DNA of 64,000 bases from Minisyncoccota bacterium (lineage in GTDB: Bacteria > Patescibacteriota > Minisyncoccia > Phycocordibacterales > JAACPR01). The position numbers were made by a program, and so were the translations under genes. Under the pieces are notes generated by a model. That model was not told the DNA's origin. It made no database searches and saw only the letters and a program-made list of their open reading frames with translations. This document shows positions 9,605-59,217 of this stretch, piece after piece. The DNA is taken from contig JBAYWG010000001.1 of assembly GCA_041674225.1 (NCBI GenBank), positions 326,273-390,272 of the forward strand. The letters run 5' to 3'. How positions within the stretch are numbered: position 1 is the first letter of the stretch; each line of letters starts with the position of its first letter.

Positions 9605-9691
9605 CGGAGAGAGAGAGATTCGAACTCTCGGTCCCCTTTCGAGGACTCCAGTTTTCAAGACTGGTGCATTCAACCACTCTGCCATCTCTCC
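9605..9691 (-). tRNA. tRNA-Ser (anticodon UGA), long variable arm
   Basis: Reverse complement GGAGAGATGGCAGAGTGGTTGAATGCACCAGTCTTGAAAACTGGAGTCCTCGAAAGGGGACCGAGAGTTCGAATCTCTCTCTCCG: 7-bp acceptor, anticodon loop CTTGAAA, long extra arm, T-loop TTCGAAT. Confidence 0.85.
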
Positions 9692-14891: not shown

Positions 14892-14963
14892 GCTCCTGTA
14901 GTTTAATGGATAAAATTGGAGTTTGCGGAACTCTAGCTCCAGGTTCGACTCCTGGCAGGGGCA
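14892..14963 (+). tRNA. tRNA-Arg (anticodon GCG by manual fold)
   Basis: GCTCCTGTAGTTTAATGGATAAAATTGGAGTTTGCGGAACTCTAGCTCCAGGTTCGACTCCTGGCAGGGGCA: clean cloverleaf, anticodon loop TTGCGGA, T-loop TTCGACT, C35 present. The isoacceptor call needs tRNAscan confirmation. Confidence 0.7.
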
Positions 14964-20939: not shown

Positions 20940-21012
20940 CCGTCCATAGCTCAGCTGGTAGAGCACCCGCCTTTTAAGCGGAGGGTCGTAGGTTCGATTC
21001 CTACTGGACGGA
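20940..21012 (+). tRNA. tRNA-Lys (anticodon UUU)
   Basis: CCGTCCATAGCTCAGCTGGTAGAGCACCCGCCTTTTAAGCGGAGGGTCGTAGGTTCGATTCCTACTGGACGGA: anticodon loop CTTTTAA. Followed by a hairpin terminator at about 21027..21056. Confidence 0.85.
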
Positions 21013-25452: not shown

Positions 25453-27225
25453 ATGATGGCTCAATTTGCAGACGAAGAATTACGAGATACAAAAGTAGCC
25501 GAGCTCCGCAGGAGCGAGGAGGAAGATCTTGCAAAAATTCTTTCAAAAAAATACAACGTTCCATACGCCGACCTTTCTCGTATCACAATCGACACGGACG
25601 GTCTAAAAACTCTTCCCGAAGAAGAAGCCCGCGCTGCGAAAATTGCGGTTTTTGATTTAATCGGAAAAAGAGTTCGTGTAGCAGTTCTTGCACCAGGACG
25701 AGAAGACACAAAAGCTGTAATGAAATCTTTAGAGGACAAAGGCTTTATCGTGGAGCCTTTTATGGTTTCTACACAAAGCCTAGAAAGAGCGTGGGAAAGA
25801 TATAAAGAAATTTCTTACGCCAGCAACACAAAAGAAGGAATGCTTGAAATTTCTAGCAAAGACATCGAGGATTTCATCAATAAAGTTCAAAAAATCGAAG
25901 ACGTAAAAGCTTTGATTGAAGAAATTGTGCAAATGAAAAAAAGCTTCCGTATTTCTCGGATTGTTGAAATTATTATGGCCGGCGCAATCTCTCTGGGAGC
26001 TTCCGATGTTCACATCGAACCAGAAGACGACTTTATTCAAATCAGATTCCGTTTAGACGGCGTGCTTATCGAAGTAACAAAATTAGATCAGGAAACTTAC
26101 CATCTGCTTCTTTCTAGGATAAAGCTTCTTTCTGGAATGAAATTGAATATTAAAGAAACAGCACAAGACGGTCGTTTCAGTATTGCTATTGGCGAAAGAG
26201 AAATCGAAATTCGTTCTTCTACCCTTCCAGGAAACTACGGAGAAAGCGTCGTTATGCGTCTTCTTGACCCGGCTTCTATTCAGGTAAAAATCCAAGACCT
26301 TGGTGTGCCAGATAAATTGTTAAAAGTTTTTATGGAGGCTTTGGCAAAACCAAACGGAATGATTCTAAACACAGGTCCGACCGGTTCCGGAAAAACAACA
26401 ACTCTTTATGCCTTTCTTCGTTTAAAGAAAACTCCTGAAATAAAAATTATTACAATCGAAGATCCTATCGAATACCACTTGGACGGAATAGTGCAAACAC
26501 AAGTTGATAACGAAAAAGGTTATGACTTCGCAACCGGTTTGAAAAAAACTCTTCGACAAGATCCAGACGTAATCATGGTGGGAGAAATCCGAGATTTAGA
26601 AACAGCAGAAACAGCTGTACACGCAGCTCTTACAGGTCACTTAGTTTTCTCTACTCTTCACACAAACAACGCCGCAGGAACTTTCACTCGATTGATCGAC
26701 CTTGGAGTGAATCCAAAAATTCTAACTTCTGCTATTAGTATGGCAATCGCGCAGAGACTTGTACGAAGACTTTGTGATGGGTGTAAAGAAGAAAAAGTTC
26801 TTGAAGGAGAAAATTTGACTCTAATGAAACAAGTTTATGAAAGTATAAAAGAAAAAGAAGTCGCTTGGGCTGAAAAAACTTTCACAGCAAAAGTTGGAGG
26901 TTGTGAAAAATGTAATCAAACAGGATATAAAGGACGAATTGGAGTTTTTGAAGCTGTTCTTTCAGATCAAAAAGTTGAAGAAGCTCTTGAATCAAATCCA
27001 AGTGAAAGAGAAATCAAAGAAGCCGCTGAACATCAAGGAATTATGGATATGGCGCAAGATGGTGTTACAAAAATTTTGAAAGGATACACAGACTTAGAAG
27101 AACTAAGAAGAGTTGTTGACCTTTCAACACGAAGCGGACTTGGCGATGCATCAGATGGATGGGCTAATGAAGATAAATCTACCGAAAAGAAAGAAGATTT
27201 TGATATTACGAAAATTGCGGAATAA
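25453..27225 (+). CDS. pilB: Type IV pilus assembly ATPase PilB (GspE family)
   Basis: N-terminal GspE_N-like domain; GPTGSGKTTTLYA Walker A; tetracysteine CDGC...CEKC zinc motif. Confidence 0.85.
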   Translation: MMAQFADEELRDTKVAELRRSEEEDLAKILSKKYNVPYADLSRITIDTDGLKTLPEEEARAAKIAVFDLIGKRVRVAVLAPGREDTKAVMKSLEDKGFIVEPFMVSTQSLERAWERYKEISYASNTKEGMLEISSKDIEDFINKVQKIEDVKALIEEIVQMKKSFRISRIVEIIMAGAISLGASDVHIEPEDDFIQIRFRLDGVLIEVTKLDQETYHLLLSRIKLLSGMKLNIKETAQDGRFSIAIGEREIEIRSSTLPGNYGESVVMRLLDPASIQVKIQDLGVPDKLLKVFMEALAKPNGMILNTGPTGSGKTTTLYAFLRLKKTPEIKIITIEDPIEYHLDGIVQTQVDNEKGYDFATGLKKTLRQDPDVIMVGEIRDLETAETAVHAALTGHLVFSTLHTNNAAGTFTRLIDLGVNPKILTSAISMAIAQRLVRRLCDGCKEEKVLEGENLTLMKQVYESIKEKEVAWAEKTFTAKVGGCEKCNQTGYKGRIGVFEAVLSDQKVEEALESNPSEREIKEAAEHQGIMDMAQDGVTKILKGYTDLEELRRVVDLSTRSGLGDASDGWANEDKSTEKKEDFDITKIAE

Positions 27226-27296
27226 AAAAAATGCTTTGACTAGTTGTGGTAAAATTTAAAACGGTTATATTTTCTATAGAAATGCCGTTTGAAAAT

Positions 27297-27437
27297 GCAG
27301 ATCTCTAAGCGAGCCAATGAACCGTGCCAAAGGGAGACGAGGAATTAAGGATAACCCCAGCAAACACGCGTTAGCATGTAACCAGGAGTGTCCTTTATTG
27401 CTCGCCTATAGACAATGTCTATCGCTTAGAGATCTGC
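27297..27437. ncRNA. Palindromic, probably structured intergenic element: 16-bp perfect terminal stem enclosing about 109 nt with nested helices (candidate small RNA or MITE-like element)
   Basis: GCAGATCTCTAAGCGA at 27297..27312 pairs perfectly with TCGCTTAGAGATCTGC at 27422..27437. Inner complementarity GCGAGC/GCTCGC and CAATGAA/TTTATTG; internal hairpin ATAGAC-aat-GTCTAT. The overlapping 69-aa track ORF is low-complexity and probably spurious. Confidence 0.35.
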
Positions 27438-27494
27438 CGTTTCAAAAATCATCCGTGTGCAGTTGTTGCAAGTATAGTAACATATTTAAAAAAA

Positions 27495-28508
27495 ATGTCA
27501 ACAAACATCACAAACCCTTTAAATGAAGCCCCGGGAGAAGTCTCTTTTCTTGATAAAGAACTTCGCCCGAGTGTATGGGACGAATATGTTGGTCAACAGT
27601 CTATTAAAGACAATTTAAACGTACTTTTAGAGGCCGCTCGAGAAAGAGGACACCCACCTGAACACATTTTATTTTACGGTCCTCCGGGTCTTGGAAAAAC
27701 AACGTTGGCATACCTTATCGCAAAACACATCGGAGCGCAAATCAAAATCACATCGGGGCCTGCTATAGAAAAAGTTGGGGATCTTGCTTCGATTCTTACA
27801 AATCTTTCATCTGGAGATATTCTTTTTATTGATGAAATTCACAGATTGAACAAAGCAATTGAAGAGGTTTTGTATCCGGCAATGGAATCTGGTGTTTTGG
27901 ATATCATTATTGGGAAAGGCCCATCAGCGAGAACAATTCAATTAGATTTGCCACCTTTCACTTTGATCGCAGCAACAACAAAGATTGCGAGTTTGTCTTC
28001 CCCACTTCGCTCACGCTTCTCTGGAGGAACATATCGATTAGAATTTTATTCTGAAAAAGAAATTGAGACTATTTTAAAAAGATCTGCGAGAATTTTACAT
28101 ATCGAATTAGAAGGCACCGCAGCAAACGCAATTTCAAAAAGAAGCAGAAGCACTCCGCGAACAGCAAACTACCTTTTGAAAAGATGTCGCGACTTGGCGC
28201 AAATTAAAAAAGAAAACCTAGATGCAAAAAATGTTTGTGAAGCTTTGGATATGTTGGAGATCGACGAACTTGGTTTAACAAAAATGGACAGAGATGTTTT
28301 GCGAGTTTTAATTGAAAAATTTAAAGGAGGGCCCGTGGGATTGAACACTCTTGCGACAGCACTTCACGAAGAAGAATCTACAGTTGAAGAATTCCATGAA
28401 CCATATTTAATTCAACTTGGAATGATCGAAAGAACTCCGCGTGGAAGAATTGCGACAGAAAAAGCGTATGCGCATTTAGGAAAAGAAGCTCCACAGATTT
28501 TTAAATAA
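27495..28508 (+). CDS. ruvB: Holliday junction DNA helicase RuvB
   Basis: LRPSVWDEYVGQQ...HILFYGPPGLGKTTLA AAA+ motif; C-terminal winged helix. Confidence 0.9.
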   Translation: MSTNITNPLNEAPGEVSFLDKELRPSVWDEYVGQQSIKDNLNVLLEAARERGHPPEHILFYGPPGLGKTTLAYLIAKHIGAQIKITSGPAIEKVGDLASILTNLSSGDILFIDEIHRLNKAIEEVLYPAMESGVLDIIIGKGPSARTIQLDLPPFTLIAATTKIASLSSPLRSRFSGGTYRLEFYSEKEIETILKRSARILHIELEGTAANAISKRSRSTPRTANYLLKRCRDLAQIKKENLDAKNVCEALDMLEIDELGLTKMDRDVLRVLIEKFKGGPVGLNTLATALHEEESTVEEFHEPYLIQLGMIERTPRGRIATEKAYAHLGKEAPQIFK

Positions 28509-54003: not shown

Positions 54004-55941
54004 TTACCAATTGATAAAAACACTTCGTGCTTGGCTGATTACATCATTGCCATCATCCCCTTCAGAGCTCTCGATTAAATCTTGTGGAATATCTTCCAAA
54101 AATTCTGACGGAATATTTACTTGTTGTGATCCATAGATTGTTCTGATTCCAGCATAAGAAAGAAATATTTTTTTTCTAGCTCGTGTTAGCGCAACATAAA
54201 ATAATCTTCTCTCTTCTTCCTCATCATCTTTCTTTGCATCTTGTCTTTCGCTTGGGAAAAGTCCTTGTTCTAATCCTGTTATAAAAACATAATCAAATTC
54301 CAATCCTTTCGATGAGTGAATTGTCATAAGTTTAACGCCGTTTTTCTTTTGAATATCAGCTTCTGTTTCAATTTCGTCTTGATCTGTCGCAAGTGCCGCT
54401 TCTTCTAAAAGCTTTGCAATTCCCTCGCTTGGATCACCTTGATCATATTTTTGTGCCAAGGTTGCAAGCTCTTTGATGTTTTGAATTCTTTCCAAACCTT
54501 CTTCTCCTCCCTTTTTCAAATCATCTTCCATTCCAGTTGATTTGATAATCATTTTAATAGTTTCACTCGGTGGATTTGTTTCTGCTGTTTTTTTAATTCT
54601 CACTAACAAACTTCTGAAGTCTGCAATTTTTTCTGCAACCTTCCCTGTCAGCAATCCTTCATTTCCTTCCAAAATTTTCAAAAGAGTTACCTTCCCAATT
54701 CCTCGCGCAGGCACATTTATAATTCTTCCCAAACTTGTTAAATCATCTGGATTAAAAGCCGCTCTCAAAAAACTTAAAATATCTTTCACTTCTTTTCTGT
54801 CGAAGAATTTTGTTCCAAGAACTTGATATGGCAAAGCCAATCTCAATAAATATTCTTCTAAAATTCGTGATTGAAAGTTTGCTCTATATAAAATCGCAAT
54901 TTCATTTGGATTCGCACCTCCATTTATTAATTCTTGAATTTCTTCTGCAACAAATCTCGCTTCGTCTAATCCATCGAACGCGTTATATAAAATCATTTTT
55001 TCTCCATCGCCATTTTCTGTAAAAAGATTTTTCTCTCGACGGTTTGTGTTTTTTTCAATCACAGCATTCGCAGCCTTTAAAATATTTCCTGTTGATCTGT
55101 AGTTTTGTTCAAGCACAATCATTTCTGCACCAGCAAAATCTTTTTCAAAATTTAAAATATTTTTTATTGTTGCACCTCTCCAGCTGTAAATGTTTTGATC
55201 AATATCCCCCACTACGCAAACATTATTTTTGTCTCCGATAATACATCTAGCCATTTCGTACTGTACGCCGTTTGTATCCTGGTACTCATCAATGTGTACA
55301 TGTTGCCAAAGGTCTTGATATTTTTTTCTAATTTCCGGATTTCTTTTTAGAAGTAAAGTTGATTCCAAAAGTAAATCATCAAAGTCATATGCTTTCTCTC
55401 GTTTTAAATTTTCTTGATACTTCACCCACACTTTTGCGGCAATTTCAGAGACAAAAGAATGATTTGACTGAGATTCAAATTCTGTGTGAGTCACCATGTT
55501 TCCTTTTTCACGAGAAATTATCGAGATGATTGTTTTTGGCTCTACACCATTTTCCCCTTCTCCGATCTCTTTCAATATTTTTTTGATTAAAGAAATAGAA
55601 TCGCTTCTGTCGTAAATATTAAAATGTTTTGGAATTCCTAAAAGATGAGAATTGTCACGCAAAATTTTTACACCCAATGAGTGAAAGGTAGAAACAAATG
55701 GTCTTCCCAAATCTTCCGCTAAAAGTTTTCCTAGTCGCTCCTTCATTTCTTTCGCAGCTTTGTTTGTGAATGTAATAGCCAGAATGTTTTCGGGTAAAAC
55801 TCCTTCTTTGACAAGGTTTAAAATTCGATGTGTTAGGGTTTTGGTTTTTCCTGCTCCTGCACCAGCCAAAATCAAAAGAGGCCCTCTGTTGTGGATAACT
55901 GCCCGTTTTTGCGCTTCATTTAAGCCCTCTAAATGTTTCAT
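54004..55941 (-). CDS. ATP-dependent DNA helicase, UvrD/PcrA family
   Basis: LNEAQKRAV...LILAGAGAGKTKTLTHRI motif I, DEYQDTN motif II, C-terminal helicase domain. Confidence 0.9.
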   Translation of the reverse strand: MKHLEGLNEAQKRAVIHNRGPLLILAGAGAGKTKTLTHRILNLVKEGVLPENILAITFTNKAAKEMKERLGKLLAEDLGRPFVSTFHSLGVKILRDNSHLLGIPKHFNIYDRSDSISLIKKILKEIGEGENGVEPKTIISIISREKGNMVTHTEFESQSNHSFVSEIAAKVWVKYQENLKREKAYDFDDLLLESTLLLKRNPEIRKKYQDLWQHVHIDEYQDTNGVQYEMARCIIGDKNNVCVVGDIDQNIYSWRGATIKNILNFEKDFAGAEMIVLEQNYRSTGNILKAANAVIEKNTNRREKNLFTENGDGEKMILYNAFDGLDEARFVAEEIQELINGGANPNEIAILYRANFQSRILEEYLLRLALPYQVLGTKFFDRKEVKDILSFLRAAFNPDDLTSLGRIINVPARGIGKVTLLKILEGNEGLLTGKVAEKIADFRSLLVRIKKTAETNPPSETIKMIIKSTGMEDDLKKGGEEGLERIQNIKELATLAQKYDQGDPSEGIAKLLEEAALATDQDEIETEADIQKKNGVKLMTIHSSKGLEFDYVFITGLEQGLFPSERQDAKKDDEEEERRLFYVALTRARKKIFLSYAGIRTIYGSQQVNIPSEFLEDIPQDLIESSEGDDGNDVISQARSVFINW

Positions 55942-56112
55942 AGTCAGACTATATTAACACACCGTTGACACCTTTCCCTAGACTGCTACCATTAAATAAT
56001 CCTCTGTAGATGGGGTCTGAAAAGGCTTATTACTTATCTGGAAAAAGACTCTGACCCTTCGTCCACGAAGCCGTATCGAGTTAACATAAATCAAATTAGT
56101 TCACGAATTACC

Positions 56113-57117
56113 GTGAAAAAGTCTTTTGTCATGGCTGCGCTTTTAGTTCTCCCAATCCTTGCTAATGCTGGAGTTTTTTCTTTCTTGGGTAGCTCTGATA
56201 ATAAAAATCTGAATGAGCCAAATGTTTCTTTAAATTCTCAAACTATCCCGGTGCTTCAGGCTGCTACAAACAATGACCCTAACCCAGCCAAAGGAGGTGG
56301 AGATATTATGGTGGTGGATGATAAAGCCATTATGGCAGTTTCGACTATTACCGGTGACCCTGTAGAAATCTATCGACCAAAATCTGATCAGATTAGTGTG
56401 TATGTGGTGCGTGAAGGTGACACTCTTTCTCAAATTGCCAACATGTTCCATGTGACTTCAAATACTATTCGTTGGGCCAATGATTTAGAGGGAGAAATCC
56501 AACCAGGACAACAATTGGTGATTTTGCCGGTGACAGGAGTGAAACATAAGGTGAAGAGTGGTGGAACAGTTGCTGATTTGGCTGAACTATACAAAGCCGA
56601 CGCAAGAGAAATTGCTTTGTTTAACGGTATTTCTGTAAATACAAAACTTGAAGCTGGTATGGAAATTCTTGTACCTAACGGAGAACTTCATGTAGAAGAA
56701 AAGAAAAAGACAAAAACTATTGCAAAAAGCAGTTCAGGAAAATCAACAGCCTCGTCATCTGCTTCAAAAGGTTCAAGTGTATTCAAAAACCCAGTTCCTG
56801 GTGCTGTAAAGACACAAGGAATTCACGGATACAACGGTGTAGACTTCGGTGCTCCAATCGGTACATCTATTTATGCAGCTGCAGCAGGACAAGTTATTAT
56901 TAGTAAGAGTAGTGGATGGAATGGTGGATACGGAAATTATGTTGTTATCAAACACGACAATGGCTCACAAACTCTTTATGCTCACGCAAGTACTGTAAAT
57001 GTTTCTTCAGGTGAATGGGTTTCTCAAGGTGATTTAATCGCTACTGTTGGAAATACAGGAAAATCAACAGGACCACACCTTCACTTTGAAGTTCGAGGAG
57101 CGACAAACCCTTTCTAG
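56113..57117 (+). CDS. Peptidoglycan endopeptidase: two LysM domains plus C-terminal M23 (LytM) peptidase
   Basis: LysM (YVVREGDTLSQIANMF; HKVKSGGTVADLAELY); M23 motifs GYNGVDFGAP, HLHFEV. Confidence 0.85.
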   Translation: MKKSFVMAALLVLPILANAGVFSFLGSSDNKNLNEPNVSLNSQTIPVLQAATNNDPNPAKGGGDIMVVDDKAIMAVSTITGDPVEIYRPKSDQISVYVVREGDTLSQIANMFHVTSNTIRWANDLEGEIQPGQQLVILPVTGVKHKVKSGGTVADLAELYKADAREIALFNGISVNTKLEAGMEILVPNGELHVEEKKKTKTIAKSSSGKSTASSSASKGSSVFKNPVPGAVKTQGIHGYNGVDFGAPIGTSIYAAAAGQVIISKSSGWNGGYGNYVVIKHDNGSQTLYAHASTVNVSSGEWVSQGDLIATVGNTGKSTGPHLHFEVRGATNPF

Positions 57118-57119
57118 TC

Positions 57120-58640
57120 TTATTCAACCCTTCGATACTGAAAGGCTTCTAATATATGAGAGTCTTTAATTTCTGGCGAAGTTTCTAGGTCTGCAATCGT
57201 TCGAGAAAGTTTTAAGATTTTGTGAATTACTCGTGCGGAGAGGTTTAATTTTTCTGAAAGTTGTTTTAATAATTTTTTATTTGATTCGTCCAGTTTTATA
57301 TACTCATTTATTTTCGATGCAGGAATTTTTGAGTTTAAAAAACCTTGTCTTTTAATTTGCAATTCTCTAGCGCGCTCTATTTTTTCTCTATAAATTTGAG
57401 ATTCAGTTTTGGGGTTTGTTTGCGGTGATATTTTTTGATCAATCAAATCAGCTGCAACAATTTGATCAACACAAATACACATATCAATTCGATCTAAAAT
57501 TGGCCCAGAGATTTTTTGTTTGTATTTTAAGATTGATTGATTACTGCAATCACATTGCTTAATATTGGTTTGATAATAACCGCACGGACATGGATTCATT
57601 GTTGTGATTAAAATAAAACTCGCAGGGTATGTCACAGAACCATTTTTTCTAGCCAGAGAAATCTTTCCGTCTTCAAGCGGACCTCTCAATGATTCAATCG
57701 CTCTCCTGTCGAATTCAGGAAATTCATCTAGAAATAAAACCCCACAATGTGCGAGTGTGATTTCTCCAATATTTAAATTTCCTCCACCTCCACAAATCGC
57801 TGTGTATGAAGCACTGTGATGTGGTGCTCGAAAAGGTCTTTGTGCAAAATTTTCAGGAGACAATAATCCTGCGCTCGAATAAATTGTTGTGATCTCCAAT
57901 AGTTCTTTTTCATTTGGTATTGGCAAAATATCTTTGAACGCTTTTGAAAGCATTGTTTTCCCTGTTCCGGGTGGACCCAAAAAAGAAATGTTGTGTTCTC
58001 CTGCTCCCGCTATCTCCAATCCTCGTTTTGCTATTTGTTGCCCTTTTATATTTTCAAAATCAATTTCGATTACCCTTTCTTTGTTTTTTAAAAAAGTTTT
58101 TCTTTGTGATTCAATAGATTCACTCTTTTGCAGATGATTAATTACTTGCAACAAATTTTTGGCAGGATAAATTTTTATTCCATCTATCAATCCAGCCTCC
58201 ACCCCATTTTCAAAAGGAATAAATATTTCTTTAAAACCTTTTTCTTTTGCAAATTTTGCAATTGGCAATGCCCCTTGAATTTTTCGAAGTCCTCCATCCA
58301 ACGCTAGTTCCCCTACAAAAACTGATTGACCAGTCTCAAATTCAAATTTCTCTGACGCTTTTAAATACCCCACGGCTATAGCTAAATCAAAAAGCGGTCC
58401 GTGTTTTTTAATATGCGCAGGAGCGAGCGATACCAGAATCCTTTCGTTCTTTTGTTTCGGAGATTTAAATCCAGAATTCTTTATTGCAGATGTCACTCTG
58501 TCTCGCGCTTCAGAAATAGCTTTATCCCCCAGCCCAACAATATTTAAAGAATAAATCCCATTAGAAATATCAACCTCTACATCCACCTTCTCGGTATTTA
58601 AATTCGAAACATGCGCGCTATACACTTTTGAAAATGACAT
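57120..58640 (-). CDS. comM: YifB/ComM-family Mg-chelatase-like AAA+ ATPase (competence protein ComM)
   Basis: N-terminal ChlI-like domain; Walker A GPPGTGKTML; Cys-rich insertion; C-terminal Mg_chelatase_C-like domain. Confidence 0.85.
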   Translation of the reverse strand: MSFSKVYSAHVSNLNTEKVDVEVDISNGIYSLNIVGLGDKAISEARDRVTSAIKNSGFKSPKQKNERILVSLAPAHIKKHGPLFDLAIAVGYLKASEKFEFETGQSVFVGELALDGGLRKIQGALPIAKFAKEKGFKEIFIPFENGVEAGLIDGIKIYPAKNLLQVINHLQKSESIESQRKTFLKNKERVIEIDFENIKGQQIAKRGLEIAGAGEHNISFLGPPGTGKTMLSKAFKDILPIPNEKELLEITTIYSSAGLLSPENFAQRPFRAPHHSASYTAICGGGGNLNIGEITLAHCGVLFLDEFPEFDRRAIESLRGPLEDGKISLARKNGSVTYPASFILITTMNPCPCGYYQTNIKQCDCSNQSILKYKQKISGPILDRIDMCICVDQIVAADLIDQKISPQTNPKTESQIYREKIERARELQIKRQGFLNSKIPASKINEYIKLDESNKKLLKQLSEKLNLSARVIHKILKLSRTIADLETSPEIKDSHILEAFQYRRVE

Positions 58641-58700
58641 TAAAGAACCATAACAAAACTAGCATTAAGATTTTCTAAATAAAGAATAAATATTAGTACA

Positions 58701-58826
58701 AAAATAAAATACTCACACCAGACACTGCGGAGGCCGTTAAGGGCCGAGCCTGTAGCGTCGAGAGATTTTTGAATGCGAAGCATTTAAAAATTCTCGAACG
58801 CGCGTCTGGTGTGAGTATTTTATTTT
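58701..58826. ncRNA. Long palindromic structured element: 23-bp perfect terminal stem enclosing about 80 nt with internal hairpins (candidate sRNA, leader or terminator structure)
   Basis: AAAATAAAATACTCACACCAGAC at 58701..58723 pairs with GTCTGGTGTGAGTATTTTATTTT at 58804..58826. Inner 19-bp hairpin TCGAGAGATTTTTGAATGC-gaa-GCATTTAAAAATTCTCGA and GGCC-gttaag-GGCC. Confidence 0.35.
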
Positions 58827-58833
58827 TGTGCTT

Positions 58834-59217
58834 TTACTTAGTCTTCTTTGCTACTTTCTTTGCAACAGGTTTAACCGCTGCTACTGTATGCTTCTTAATA
58901 TTCTTCCAATGCCCCTTCATATCCTTCAAAAGATCTTGAACTTCTTCTTCTGTAACAGTTTTAACTTTGCTGTACTTAGCTACCACACCATCTACTATTT
59001 TGTGGTAATTTTCTTCAGTAAGTTCACCTTTTACTTGTTCAATTTTTTCGATAACCTCTCCTTTTGCTTTCAAAGCCCATCCTTTGATAGCTTTTCGATT
59101 CTTTTTCGCGTCTTTAGATCCGTATAAAAAGTAAACCCCAGCTGCAGCTGCAGCAGCTAGTGCTAATCCAATCCCTGCTTGTACCCCACTATTATTGTCT
59201 TTCTTTTTTGTCGCCAT
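58834..59217 (-). CDS. Hypothetical membrane-associated protein (Ala-rich TM plus Lys-rich helical domain; YtxH-like)
   Basis: ORF, one TM. Confidence 0.4.
   Translation of the reverse strand: MATKKKDNNSGVQAGIGLALAAAAAAGVYFLYGSKDAKKNRKAIKGWALKAKGEVIEKIEQVKGELTEENYHKIVDGVVAKYSKVKTVTEEEVQDLLKDMKGHWKNIKKHTVAAVKPVAKKVAKKTK

Follow-up and report, generated by a model that had tools for sequence, protein, structure and literature searches.

A structured element between pilB and ruvB

In the window, by which we mean the whole 64-kb stretch of Minisyncoccota DNA analysed here, two genes on the plus strand enclose the intergenic region that is the subject of this report:

25453-27225, plus strand: pilB-like type II/IV secretion ATPase (Pfam T2SSE, 6.7e-120), convergent with the small RNA (sRNA) gene proposed below
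27495-28508, plus strand: ruvB (Pfam RuvB_N, AAA_lid_4 and RuvB_C), divergent from that proposed gene

The original prediction was of a 141-nt palindromic, structured element in this region, bounded by a perfect 16-bp terminal inverted repeat. Such an element is indeed present, and it is more stable than every shuffled sequence with which it was compared. Its arms, GCAGATCTCTAAGCGA (27297-27312) and TCGCTTAGAGATCTGC (27422-27437), match perfectly over 16 bp with 109 nt between them, and the repeat lengthens to 25 nt at 92% complementarity (27288-27312 and 27422-27446). The 141-nt element has a G+C content of 48%, against 25-30% in the flanking intergenic DNA and 36% over the whole window. Its minimum free energy is -54.9 kcal/mol on the plus strand (z -6.6) and -64.3 kcal/mol on the minus strand (z -6.8), and on each strand none of 200 dinucleotide shuffles was equally stable. 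Inverted-repeat arms of this sort are rare, one other pair that is equally long and more than a few bases apart being found in the 64 kb (58682-58845). BLAST and nhmmer found no second copy of the element within the window.

A family of homologous loci in Patescibacteria

The nearest genome relatives of the window RuvB, at 59-74% identity, are MAGs of Minisyncoccia, Paceibacterota, Zambryski-, Nomura-, Kaiser- and Ryanbacteria. These groups belong to the Patescibacteria/CPR, the NCBI phylum Minisyncoccota. Weak similarity to the element was detected by BLAST and nhmmer just 5' of ruvB in the loci of two relatives, and a relaxed motif search found the stem motif upstream of ruvB in 13 loci. A covariance model, designated R1, was built from 13 sequences. 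It finds the RNA in 20 of about 24 CPR ruvB loci and in none of about 58 ruvB loci from outside the CPR.

Metagenome contigs were scanned with a DNA pattern that takes no account of gene context, TCTCTAARYRAN{90,120}TYRYTTAGAGA, giving at least 120 matching loci. About 108 of the 120 pattern matches listed are family members by R1, with scores of 56-134 bits. Viral contigs gave four pattern matches and no family members. The homologues number at least about 128, one per locus, all of them in Patescibacteria/Minisyncoccia contigs; the family was found here only in contigs of the Patescibacteria/CPR, namely Minisyncoccia, Paceibacterota, Zambryski-, Nomura-, Kaiser- and Ryanbacteria. The closest relative among the matches listed, locus L161, has a RuvB 91% identical to that of the window. 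Conservation across CPR loci argues against the possibility, raised in the original prediction, that the element is noise, and a single copy in the window with one per locus elsewhere favours a non-coding RNA over a repeat element.

Gene order is also conserved. Among the pattern matches listed with enough flanking sequence, all but two share one arrangement, in which a divergent ruvB lies upstream at 28-480 nt from the model and a convergent pilB homologue comes downstream. RuvB identity among genomes that share this slot is only 63-91%. In one of the two exceptions (L173, positions 1-1563), the RNA and the convergent pilB are kept, and the place of ruvB is taken by a split methyltransferase and a toxin-antitoxin-like pair. 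In the other (L181, positions 1-1060), the RNA is kept and an unrelated ORF of 175 amino acids lies upstream. The RNA is single-copy, syntenic and not mobile, and it outlasts the loss of its adjacency to ruvB.

Covariation supports a closing stem and a tight multi-helix junction

The original prediction described nested helices around a multi-stem junction, to be checked by RNA folding and covariation analysis in homologous intergenic regions. When this analysis was run, covariation supported the helices and the junction alike. In a MAFFT alignment not fitted to any structure, RNAalifold called 38 pairs, 23 of them with compensatory double changes. In the 96-sequence model alignment, 94.3% of cells are paired, compared to 39-50% when the partners are slid by one to three columns, and in 30 of the 38 pairs both partners vary. 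When the columns of this alignment were shuffled 500 times, the observed value was never reached for any of five pairing measures. The parts of the structure, all on the minus strand and given here in the order in which the RNA is read, are as follows:

27422-27446, minus strand: 5' strand of the closing stem P1; the inner 16 nt are the right arm of the terminal inverted repeat, and the outer 7 nt lie beyond a 2-nt mismatch
27408-27421, minus strand: small hairpin P2, UAGAC-AUU-GUCUA, from the fold; optional in the family
27335-27407, minus strand: long irregular arm P3, made of a basal helix, an AGGAC / UAUCCU helix, a yyUGG / CUGrr helix and a variable tip hairpin
27314-27333, minus strand: 3'-side hairpin P4, AU-rich, with family consensus ACUUU...AAAG
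27288-27312, minus strand: 3' strand of P1; the inner 16 nt are the left arm of the terminal inverted repeat, and the outer part includes AUUUUCAAA

P1 is a closing stem of 25-30 bp in which 19 of 24 pairs are changed on both sides among the 96 sequences. In the main clade the sequence of its inner 13 bp (AUCUCUAAGCAAU / AUUGCUUAGAGAU) hardly varies, a conservation that in the metagenome set is partly forced by the search pattern. Distant members (L005, L007, L015, L019 and L023) keep the helix with a different sequence, and between the window and L161 a G-C pair is replaced by A-U through a double change. P2 is represented in relatives by many different compensating stems with UUCG- or CUYG-type loops. 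In many members it is a GC/UUCG hairpin of great stability, with energies as low as -13.7 kcal/mol, and it is absent or weak in 35 of the 96 sequences.

Conserved features of P3 include a C/UA internal loop beside the AGGAC / UAUCCU helix and a G•U/G mismatch next to an invariant G-C pair in the yyUGG / CUGrr helix; in helices 2 and 3 of the model, double changes occur in 9 of 11 pairs. The basal part and the tip of P3 pair only partially in the ungapped register, owing to bulges, and their sub-helices are taken from individual folds rather than from column statistics. The inner pairs of P4 (k2, k4, k5 and k6) each exceed all 500 shuffles. With joints of about one to four unpaired nucleotides, the helices meet in a tight four-way junction, or a three-way junction where P2 is missing. 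In the family consensus, conserved nucleotides lie in helices and internal loops, and every hairpin loop is variable.

Near-identical direct repeats, GCCGTTTGAAAAT at 27284-27296 and GCCGTTTCAAAAA at 27436-27448, flank the element of the window and mimic a target-site duplication; they are not kept in L161. The near-palindromic character of outer P1 accounts for them, together with a possible second hairpin (27255-27294).

The element had been judged not convincingly coding, and the homologues bear this out. Coding potential was rejected, since element lengths range from 135 to 189 nt with a flat distribution modulo three, showing no 3-periodicity, and the helices change by compensation. One ORF of 69 amino acids beginning with ATG (27317-27526, plus strand) runs through the element into the start of ruvB. 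Because it has no Pfam match, and because changes in the region compensate each other within base pairs and its indels do not come in triplets, this ORF is almost certainly spurious.

The second inverted repeat of the window, at 58682-58845, has 42-nt arms that are 88% complementary, including a core of about 30 bp without a mismatch. The 80 nt between the arms form two GC-rich hairpins. Its minimum free energy is -82.5 kcal/mol on the plus strand and -77.8 kcal/mol on the minus strand, with z scores of about -12 to -13. It lies between an ORF of 126 amino acids with no Pfam match and a Mg-chelatase/ComM-like AAA gene (57120-58640), both on the minus strand, and it has no match to Rfam or to R1. 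In build it resembles the RNA between pilB and ruvB, with a very long closing stem and a small junction. A further structured RNA, so far unannotated, or a large terminator may lie here.

The RNA is assigned to the minus strand

Counted on the minus strand, the 38 modelled pairs in 96 sequences contain 424 G·U or U·G cells and 53 A·C or C·A cells. Reading the opposite strand would swap the two counts and leave 424 A·C cells, and the RNA is therefore assigned to the minus strand, antisense to pilB and ruvB. In the window, the minus strand of the element is the more stable by 9.4 kcal/mol, and R1 matches 27285-27449 on the minus strand with 111.7 bits, compared to 38 bits on the plus strand. Every member reaches 56-149 bits with R1 on the RNA strand and no more than 54 bits on the opposite strand, a gap of 40-90 bits. 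A run of at least six U in eight nucleotides follows P1 on the RNA strand in 56 of 127 loci, three times as commonly as on the other strand (17 of 127). Four independent lines, namely the pair counts, the R1 scores, the promoter described below and the U-runs, point to the minus strand as the functional one, and not to the plus strand that was implicit in the original prediction.

Promoter and predicted transcript ends

The following features of the minus strand were identified around the element:

27496-27501, minus strand: -35 box TTGACA, from a promoter scan (10 of 12 matches, with TG before the -10 box), overlapping the ruvB ATG at 27495-27497 on the plus strand
27474-27482, minus strand: extended -10 box TGtTACTAT, from the promoter scan, with a predicted start near 27467 from promoter geometry
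27285-27467, minus strand: predicted sRNA transcript of about 180 nt, from the promoter, the R1 match and the fold
27251-27294, minus strand: possible alternative or back-up terminator, a hairpin UUUCAAACGG...CCGUUUUAAA followed by UUUU, from inverted repeat I7 and the fold; not kept in L161

Read in the direction of the RNA, TTGACA (27501-27496) is followed by a 16-nt spacer and by TGtTACTAT ending at 27474. This arrangement would act as a sigma-70-type promoter, with an extended -10, driving the sRNA from the minus strand. A generalized form, cTTGACA-N(12-14)-TGnTAnnnT, occurs upstream on the RNA strand in 120 of the 121 loci with enough flank, while the mirrored control gave two. In L161 the promoter is fully kept. 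The -35 box lies over the ruvB ATG in many relatives, as it does in the window. Elsewhere in the window, the sole other match to TTGACA-N13-16-TGCTAnnnT, a pattern common to the sRNA promoters of relatives, is at 55965-55992 on the plus strand, just 3' of an ORF at 54004-55941 and upstream of an ORF at 56113-57117.

From the promoter and the fold we infer an sRNA of about 170-190 nt, with its start, its 3' end and its abundance all deduced from sequence. The distance from promoter to P1 ranges from 5 to 182 nt across loci; given this variation, any position assigned to the mature 5' end is tentative, with processing assumed. A terminator-like hairpin, CCGCGGGAGCGG followed by UUUUGUUUUU, stands between the conserved promoter and P1 in L010 (3814-3990, minus-strand leader). 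In some genomes, then, the long leader may be transcribed separately as a short RNA, or transcription of the structured RNA may begin elsewhere.

At the 3' end, P1 appears to double as an intrinsic terminator in many members, placed around a conserved domain of 110 nt, and P1 with a directly following U-tract would often be the terminator of the RNA. The original prediction had held that the element lacks a U-run and is not a simple terminator. The first point stands weakly for the window copy, in which AUUUUCAAA follows the stem on the minus strand; there P1 is followed by AUUUU, with a tract of four U, and the terminator scan called none. It does not stand for the family, given the 56 of 127 loci with a U-run, and the second point fails to the extent that in many homologues the closing stem and U-tract do resemble an intrinsic terminator belonging to the RNA itself. 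A simple terminator was nevertheless rejected as a full account, since it would not need the conserved 110-nt interior. Members without a U-run after P1 often have a separate hairpin and U-run terminator, for example L006 and L016. In the window, termination at the second hairpin and its U-run near 27251 would give a transcript of about 215 nt instead.

Searches against catalogued RNA families

The Rfam/Infernal search proposed with the original prediction was run, and no catalogued family matches the element. Against Rfam 15 (4227 models, including SRP, tmRNA, RNase P and ribozymes), the window and 35 homologous loci, comprising 15 ruvB-linked loci and 20 short metagenome loci, gave no match to the element at the gathering score or at E≤10. 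Such chance matches as appeared were scattered and did not recur across loci. The model for 6S RNA, RF00013, likewise gave no match at the gathering score or at E≤10 in the window and the 35 loci. Comparison by eye with SRP helix 8, RNase P P4, tmRNA, 5S rRNA, hammerhead and twister cores, T-box, and TPP and purine aptamers found nothing convincing. The literature was searched for ncRNAs of CPR/Patescibacteria, for 6S RNA in the CPR and for RNA motifs linked to ruvB, and no relevant account was found. Judged by Rfam 15 and the searchable literature, the sRNA family is undescribed.

In the 64-kb window as a whole, the gathering-level Rfam matches are three tRNAs, at 9605-9691 (minus strand), 14892-14963 (plus strand) and 20940-21012 (plus strand). 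Genes for SRP, RNase P, tmRNA and 6S RNA were not found in the window at that level.

Proposed nature of the RNA

Comparative sequence evidence makes it likely that the locus is an independently transcribed, non-coding and highly structured sRNA gene on the minus strand, belonging to a previously uncatalogued CPR family, and that its product is probably protein-binding. Among the candidates that the original prediction put forward, a small regulatory or structured RNA is the one supported, the element being conserved, covarying and single-copy, with its own promoter and a terminator-like end. Since the hairpin loops are variable, the RNA has no conserved single-stranded seed. Conservation in helices and internal loops, with no seed, points to a protein-binding RNA rather than one that pairs with mRNA or senses a ligand in cis. 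The pattern of conservation suggests that the RNA is most likely a stable protein-binding RNA, serving as scaffold or decoy in a ribonucleoprotein.

A more specific proposal is offered tentatively, as something possible but short of probable. The RNA could be a subunit or decoy of an unknown Paceibacteria-type CPR ribonucleoprotein, constituting a new functional class, with P1 and P3 as sites of protein recognition and with the gene placed face to face with ruvB in a reciprocal setting. If this is true, RNA output and the capacity for recombination and repair would be set reciprocally, and the class would be distinct from 6S, SRP and Y RNA. That the tight four-way junction, beside ruvB/ruvC, mimics a Holliday junction would be at best a very long shot.

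CPR/Patescibacteria make up a large share of bacterial diversity, and have tiny genomes from which most non-essential DNA has been discarded. To our knowledge, almost none of their regulatory RNAs has been studied experimentally. A single-copy, strongly promoted and covarying RNA at a fixed position in such reduced genomes is likely to have an important role, because it has been retained across many Paceibacteria-type lineages whose cells shed most non-essential DNA. The family counts at least about 128 members and has an assigned strand, a consensus for its promoter and a covariance model that works, and it is ready for use in RNA catalogues and genome annotation.

Facing promoters and a possible local role

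In 48 of 120 loci (about 40%), an extended -10 box (TGnTAnnnT; TGCTATAAT in most loci listed) lies on the ruvB-sense strand inside the sRNA leader. Examples of such face-to-face sRNA and ruvB promoters are L160, L124, L101 and L163, where the two transcripts would overlap by about 10-100 nt at their 5' ends. Neither the window nor L161 has the ruvB-sense extended -10, and the promoter scan of the window gave no other ruvB promoter on the plus strand. At loci with facing promoters, transcription of the sRNA could dampen ruvB by promoter competition or through the antisense overlap of the 5' ends. Some additional dampening of ruvB is probably exerted where the promoters face each other, that is, in about 40% of relatives and not in the window.

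These observations bear on an alternative in which the role of the locus is mainly local. The antisense unit, through strong transcription, would limit ruvB by promoter occlusion, collision of convergent transcription and antisense pairing at the 5' end, the stem would be a terminator-insulator between pilB and ruvB, and the fold would serve stability and termination. Several features fit: ruvB is upstream and divergent at 28-480 nt in nearly all members, the -35 box covers the ruvB ATG in the window and many relatives, the promoters are face to face in 48 of 120 loci, P1 with its U-run resembles a terminator, and the plus strand of the window offers no other ruvB promoter. However, neither interference nor termination needs a four-way junction, conserved internal loops in P3, and pairing that is compatible with G·U throughout. 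Moreover, the RNA and its promoter are kept where no ruvB lies upstream (L173 and L181), and the facing promoter is missing from 60% of loci, including the window. We judge it unlikely that a local role is the main one. Such a role partly overlaps our preferred reading, a protein-binding sRNA, is compatible with a function in trans, and can coexist with it.

Other alternatives

An unlikely alternative, argued by analogy, is that the RNA is a highly diverged 6S RNA or a functional analogue, which would mimic an open promoter, sequester sigma-70-type holoenzyme, and be freed by a pRNA made on the 5' strand of P1. It bears on whether CPR bacteria have a 6S-type regulator of RNA polymerase or a substitute for one. 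6S RNA is about 200 nt long. Its two ends pair in a closing stem, internal loops break up its apical arm, and B. subtilis 6S-1 has a hairpin on the 3' side of the centre (PMC8876501). The present RNA, a predicted stand-alone sRNA put at about 170-200 or about 165-190 nt, with a strong promoter of housekeeping type, shares this plan: its ends are paired in a long closing stem, its apical arm is broken by internal loops, and P4 is a hairpin 3' of the centre. R1 matches of 135-189 nt, with covariation support for P1 and P3, agree with 6S RNA in size and closing stem. Also in favour is that about a third of members have a weak P2 or lack it. Because sequence identity among 6S RNAs is limited (PMC8876501), failure to match RF00013 at E≤10, in the window and 20 other members, counts against this alternative without deciding the matter.

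Several differences count against this alternative. 6S RNA is marked by a large bubble at its centre, relatively unstructured and open on the 5' side (PMC8876501), whereas the centre of the present RNA is a tight three- or four-way junction with about one to four unpaired nucleotides per joint, formed with a covarying P2 on the 5' side and P4 on the 3' side. With P2 absent or weak in 35 of the 96 sequences, this contrast does not hold in full. P2, moreover, is often very stable, reaching -13.7 kcal/mol. The inner part of P1 is a near-perfect helix, unlike the bulged arms of 6S RNA. Complementarity between the strands that would form the bubble and the 3' strand of P1, as expected for a 6S-type release or collapse helix, is not in excess: RNAduplex found the 5' and 3' junction strands to pair with it no better than shuffles do (mean z -0.06 and +0.06).

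It is very unlikely that the RNA is related to Y RNA or YrlA, or is some other RNA with a tRNA-like cloverleaf, serving to tether a Ro-type or RNA-processing protein. As in bacterial Y RNA and YrlA, a helix formed from both ends carries a multi-helix, cloverleaf-like domain, here a tight four-way junction, and is presumed to bind protein. Unlike them, the RNA lacks T-loop and D-loop signatures, including any conserved hairpin loop of T-loop type, has no match at E≤10 to the Rfam Y_RNA, YrlA or tRNA-clan models, and has pilB and ruvB for neighbours rather than rsr.

The original prediction also offered an RNA leader for ruvB, and to a cis-regulatory, riboswitch-like element in the 5' UTR of ruvB on the plus strand we give next to no weight. 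The element does lie directly upstream of ruvB nearly always, its plus strand also folds well, and a read-through transcript from pilB to ruvB would include it. Nevertheless, the leader was rejected because of the asymmetry between the strands and the orientation of the promoter. Read on the plus strand, 424 helix cells become A·C mismatches (compared to 53 on the minus strand), R1 scores drop by 40-90 bits, and in 120 of 121 loci the conserved promoter lies on the opposite strand. With 25 bp or more in the closing stem there is no space for switching, and the RNA persists in L173 and L181, away from ruvB.

Least credible of all is the MITE-like mobile element of the original prediction, with the 16-bp arms as terminal inverted repeats. 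Those repeats are perfect, and the immediate flanks noted in the present analysis, CGTTTGAAAAT and CGTTTCAAAAA, resemble an 11-bp target-site duplication. We rejected it on single copy, synteny and covariation: the 64-kb window contains a single copy and every other locus has one as well; the RNA occupies a syntenic slot in genomes whose RuvB proteins are only 63-91% identical (in all listed loci with enough flank except L173 and L181); the supposed terminal repeats covary as an RNA helix through compensatory changes; the duplication-like flank is part of the extended stem and is not kept in L161; and none of the four pattern matches in viral contigs is a member.

Comparison with known systems

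Among known RNAs, 6S RNA (ssrS; RF00013) has the nearest architecture, and the RNA between pilB and ruvB is not filed as 6S.

Face-to-face promoter pairs are a general mechanism of transcriptional interference or cis-antisense control, and systems with convergent promoters do not normally include a conserved, covarying RNA with a four-way junction. The present locus is like them in that the sRNA promoter overlaps the start of ruvB and a facing ruvB extended -10 occurs in 48 of 120 loci. It differs from them in having such an RNA, and in that the facing promoter is neither universal nor present in the window.

Structured RNA motifs named after phyla were reportedly found by comparative genomics in the work of Weinberg et al. 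(2010). The family described here is like orphan sRNAs of that type in being defined by covariation, by a conserved promoter and terminator and by restricted taxonomy, with one copy per genome near housekeeping genes. It differs from those motifs in sequence and structure and has no Rfam match, and it is set apart further by its confinement to the CPR/Minisyncoccia and by the unusually rigid synteny in which the RNA lies between pilB and ruvB.
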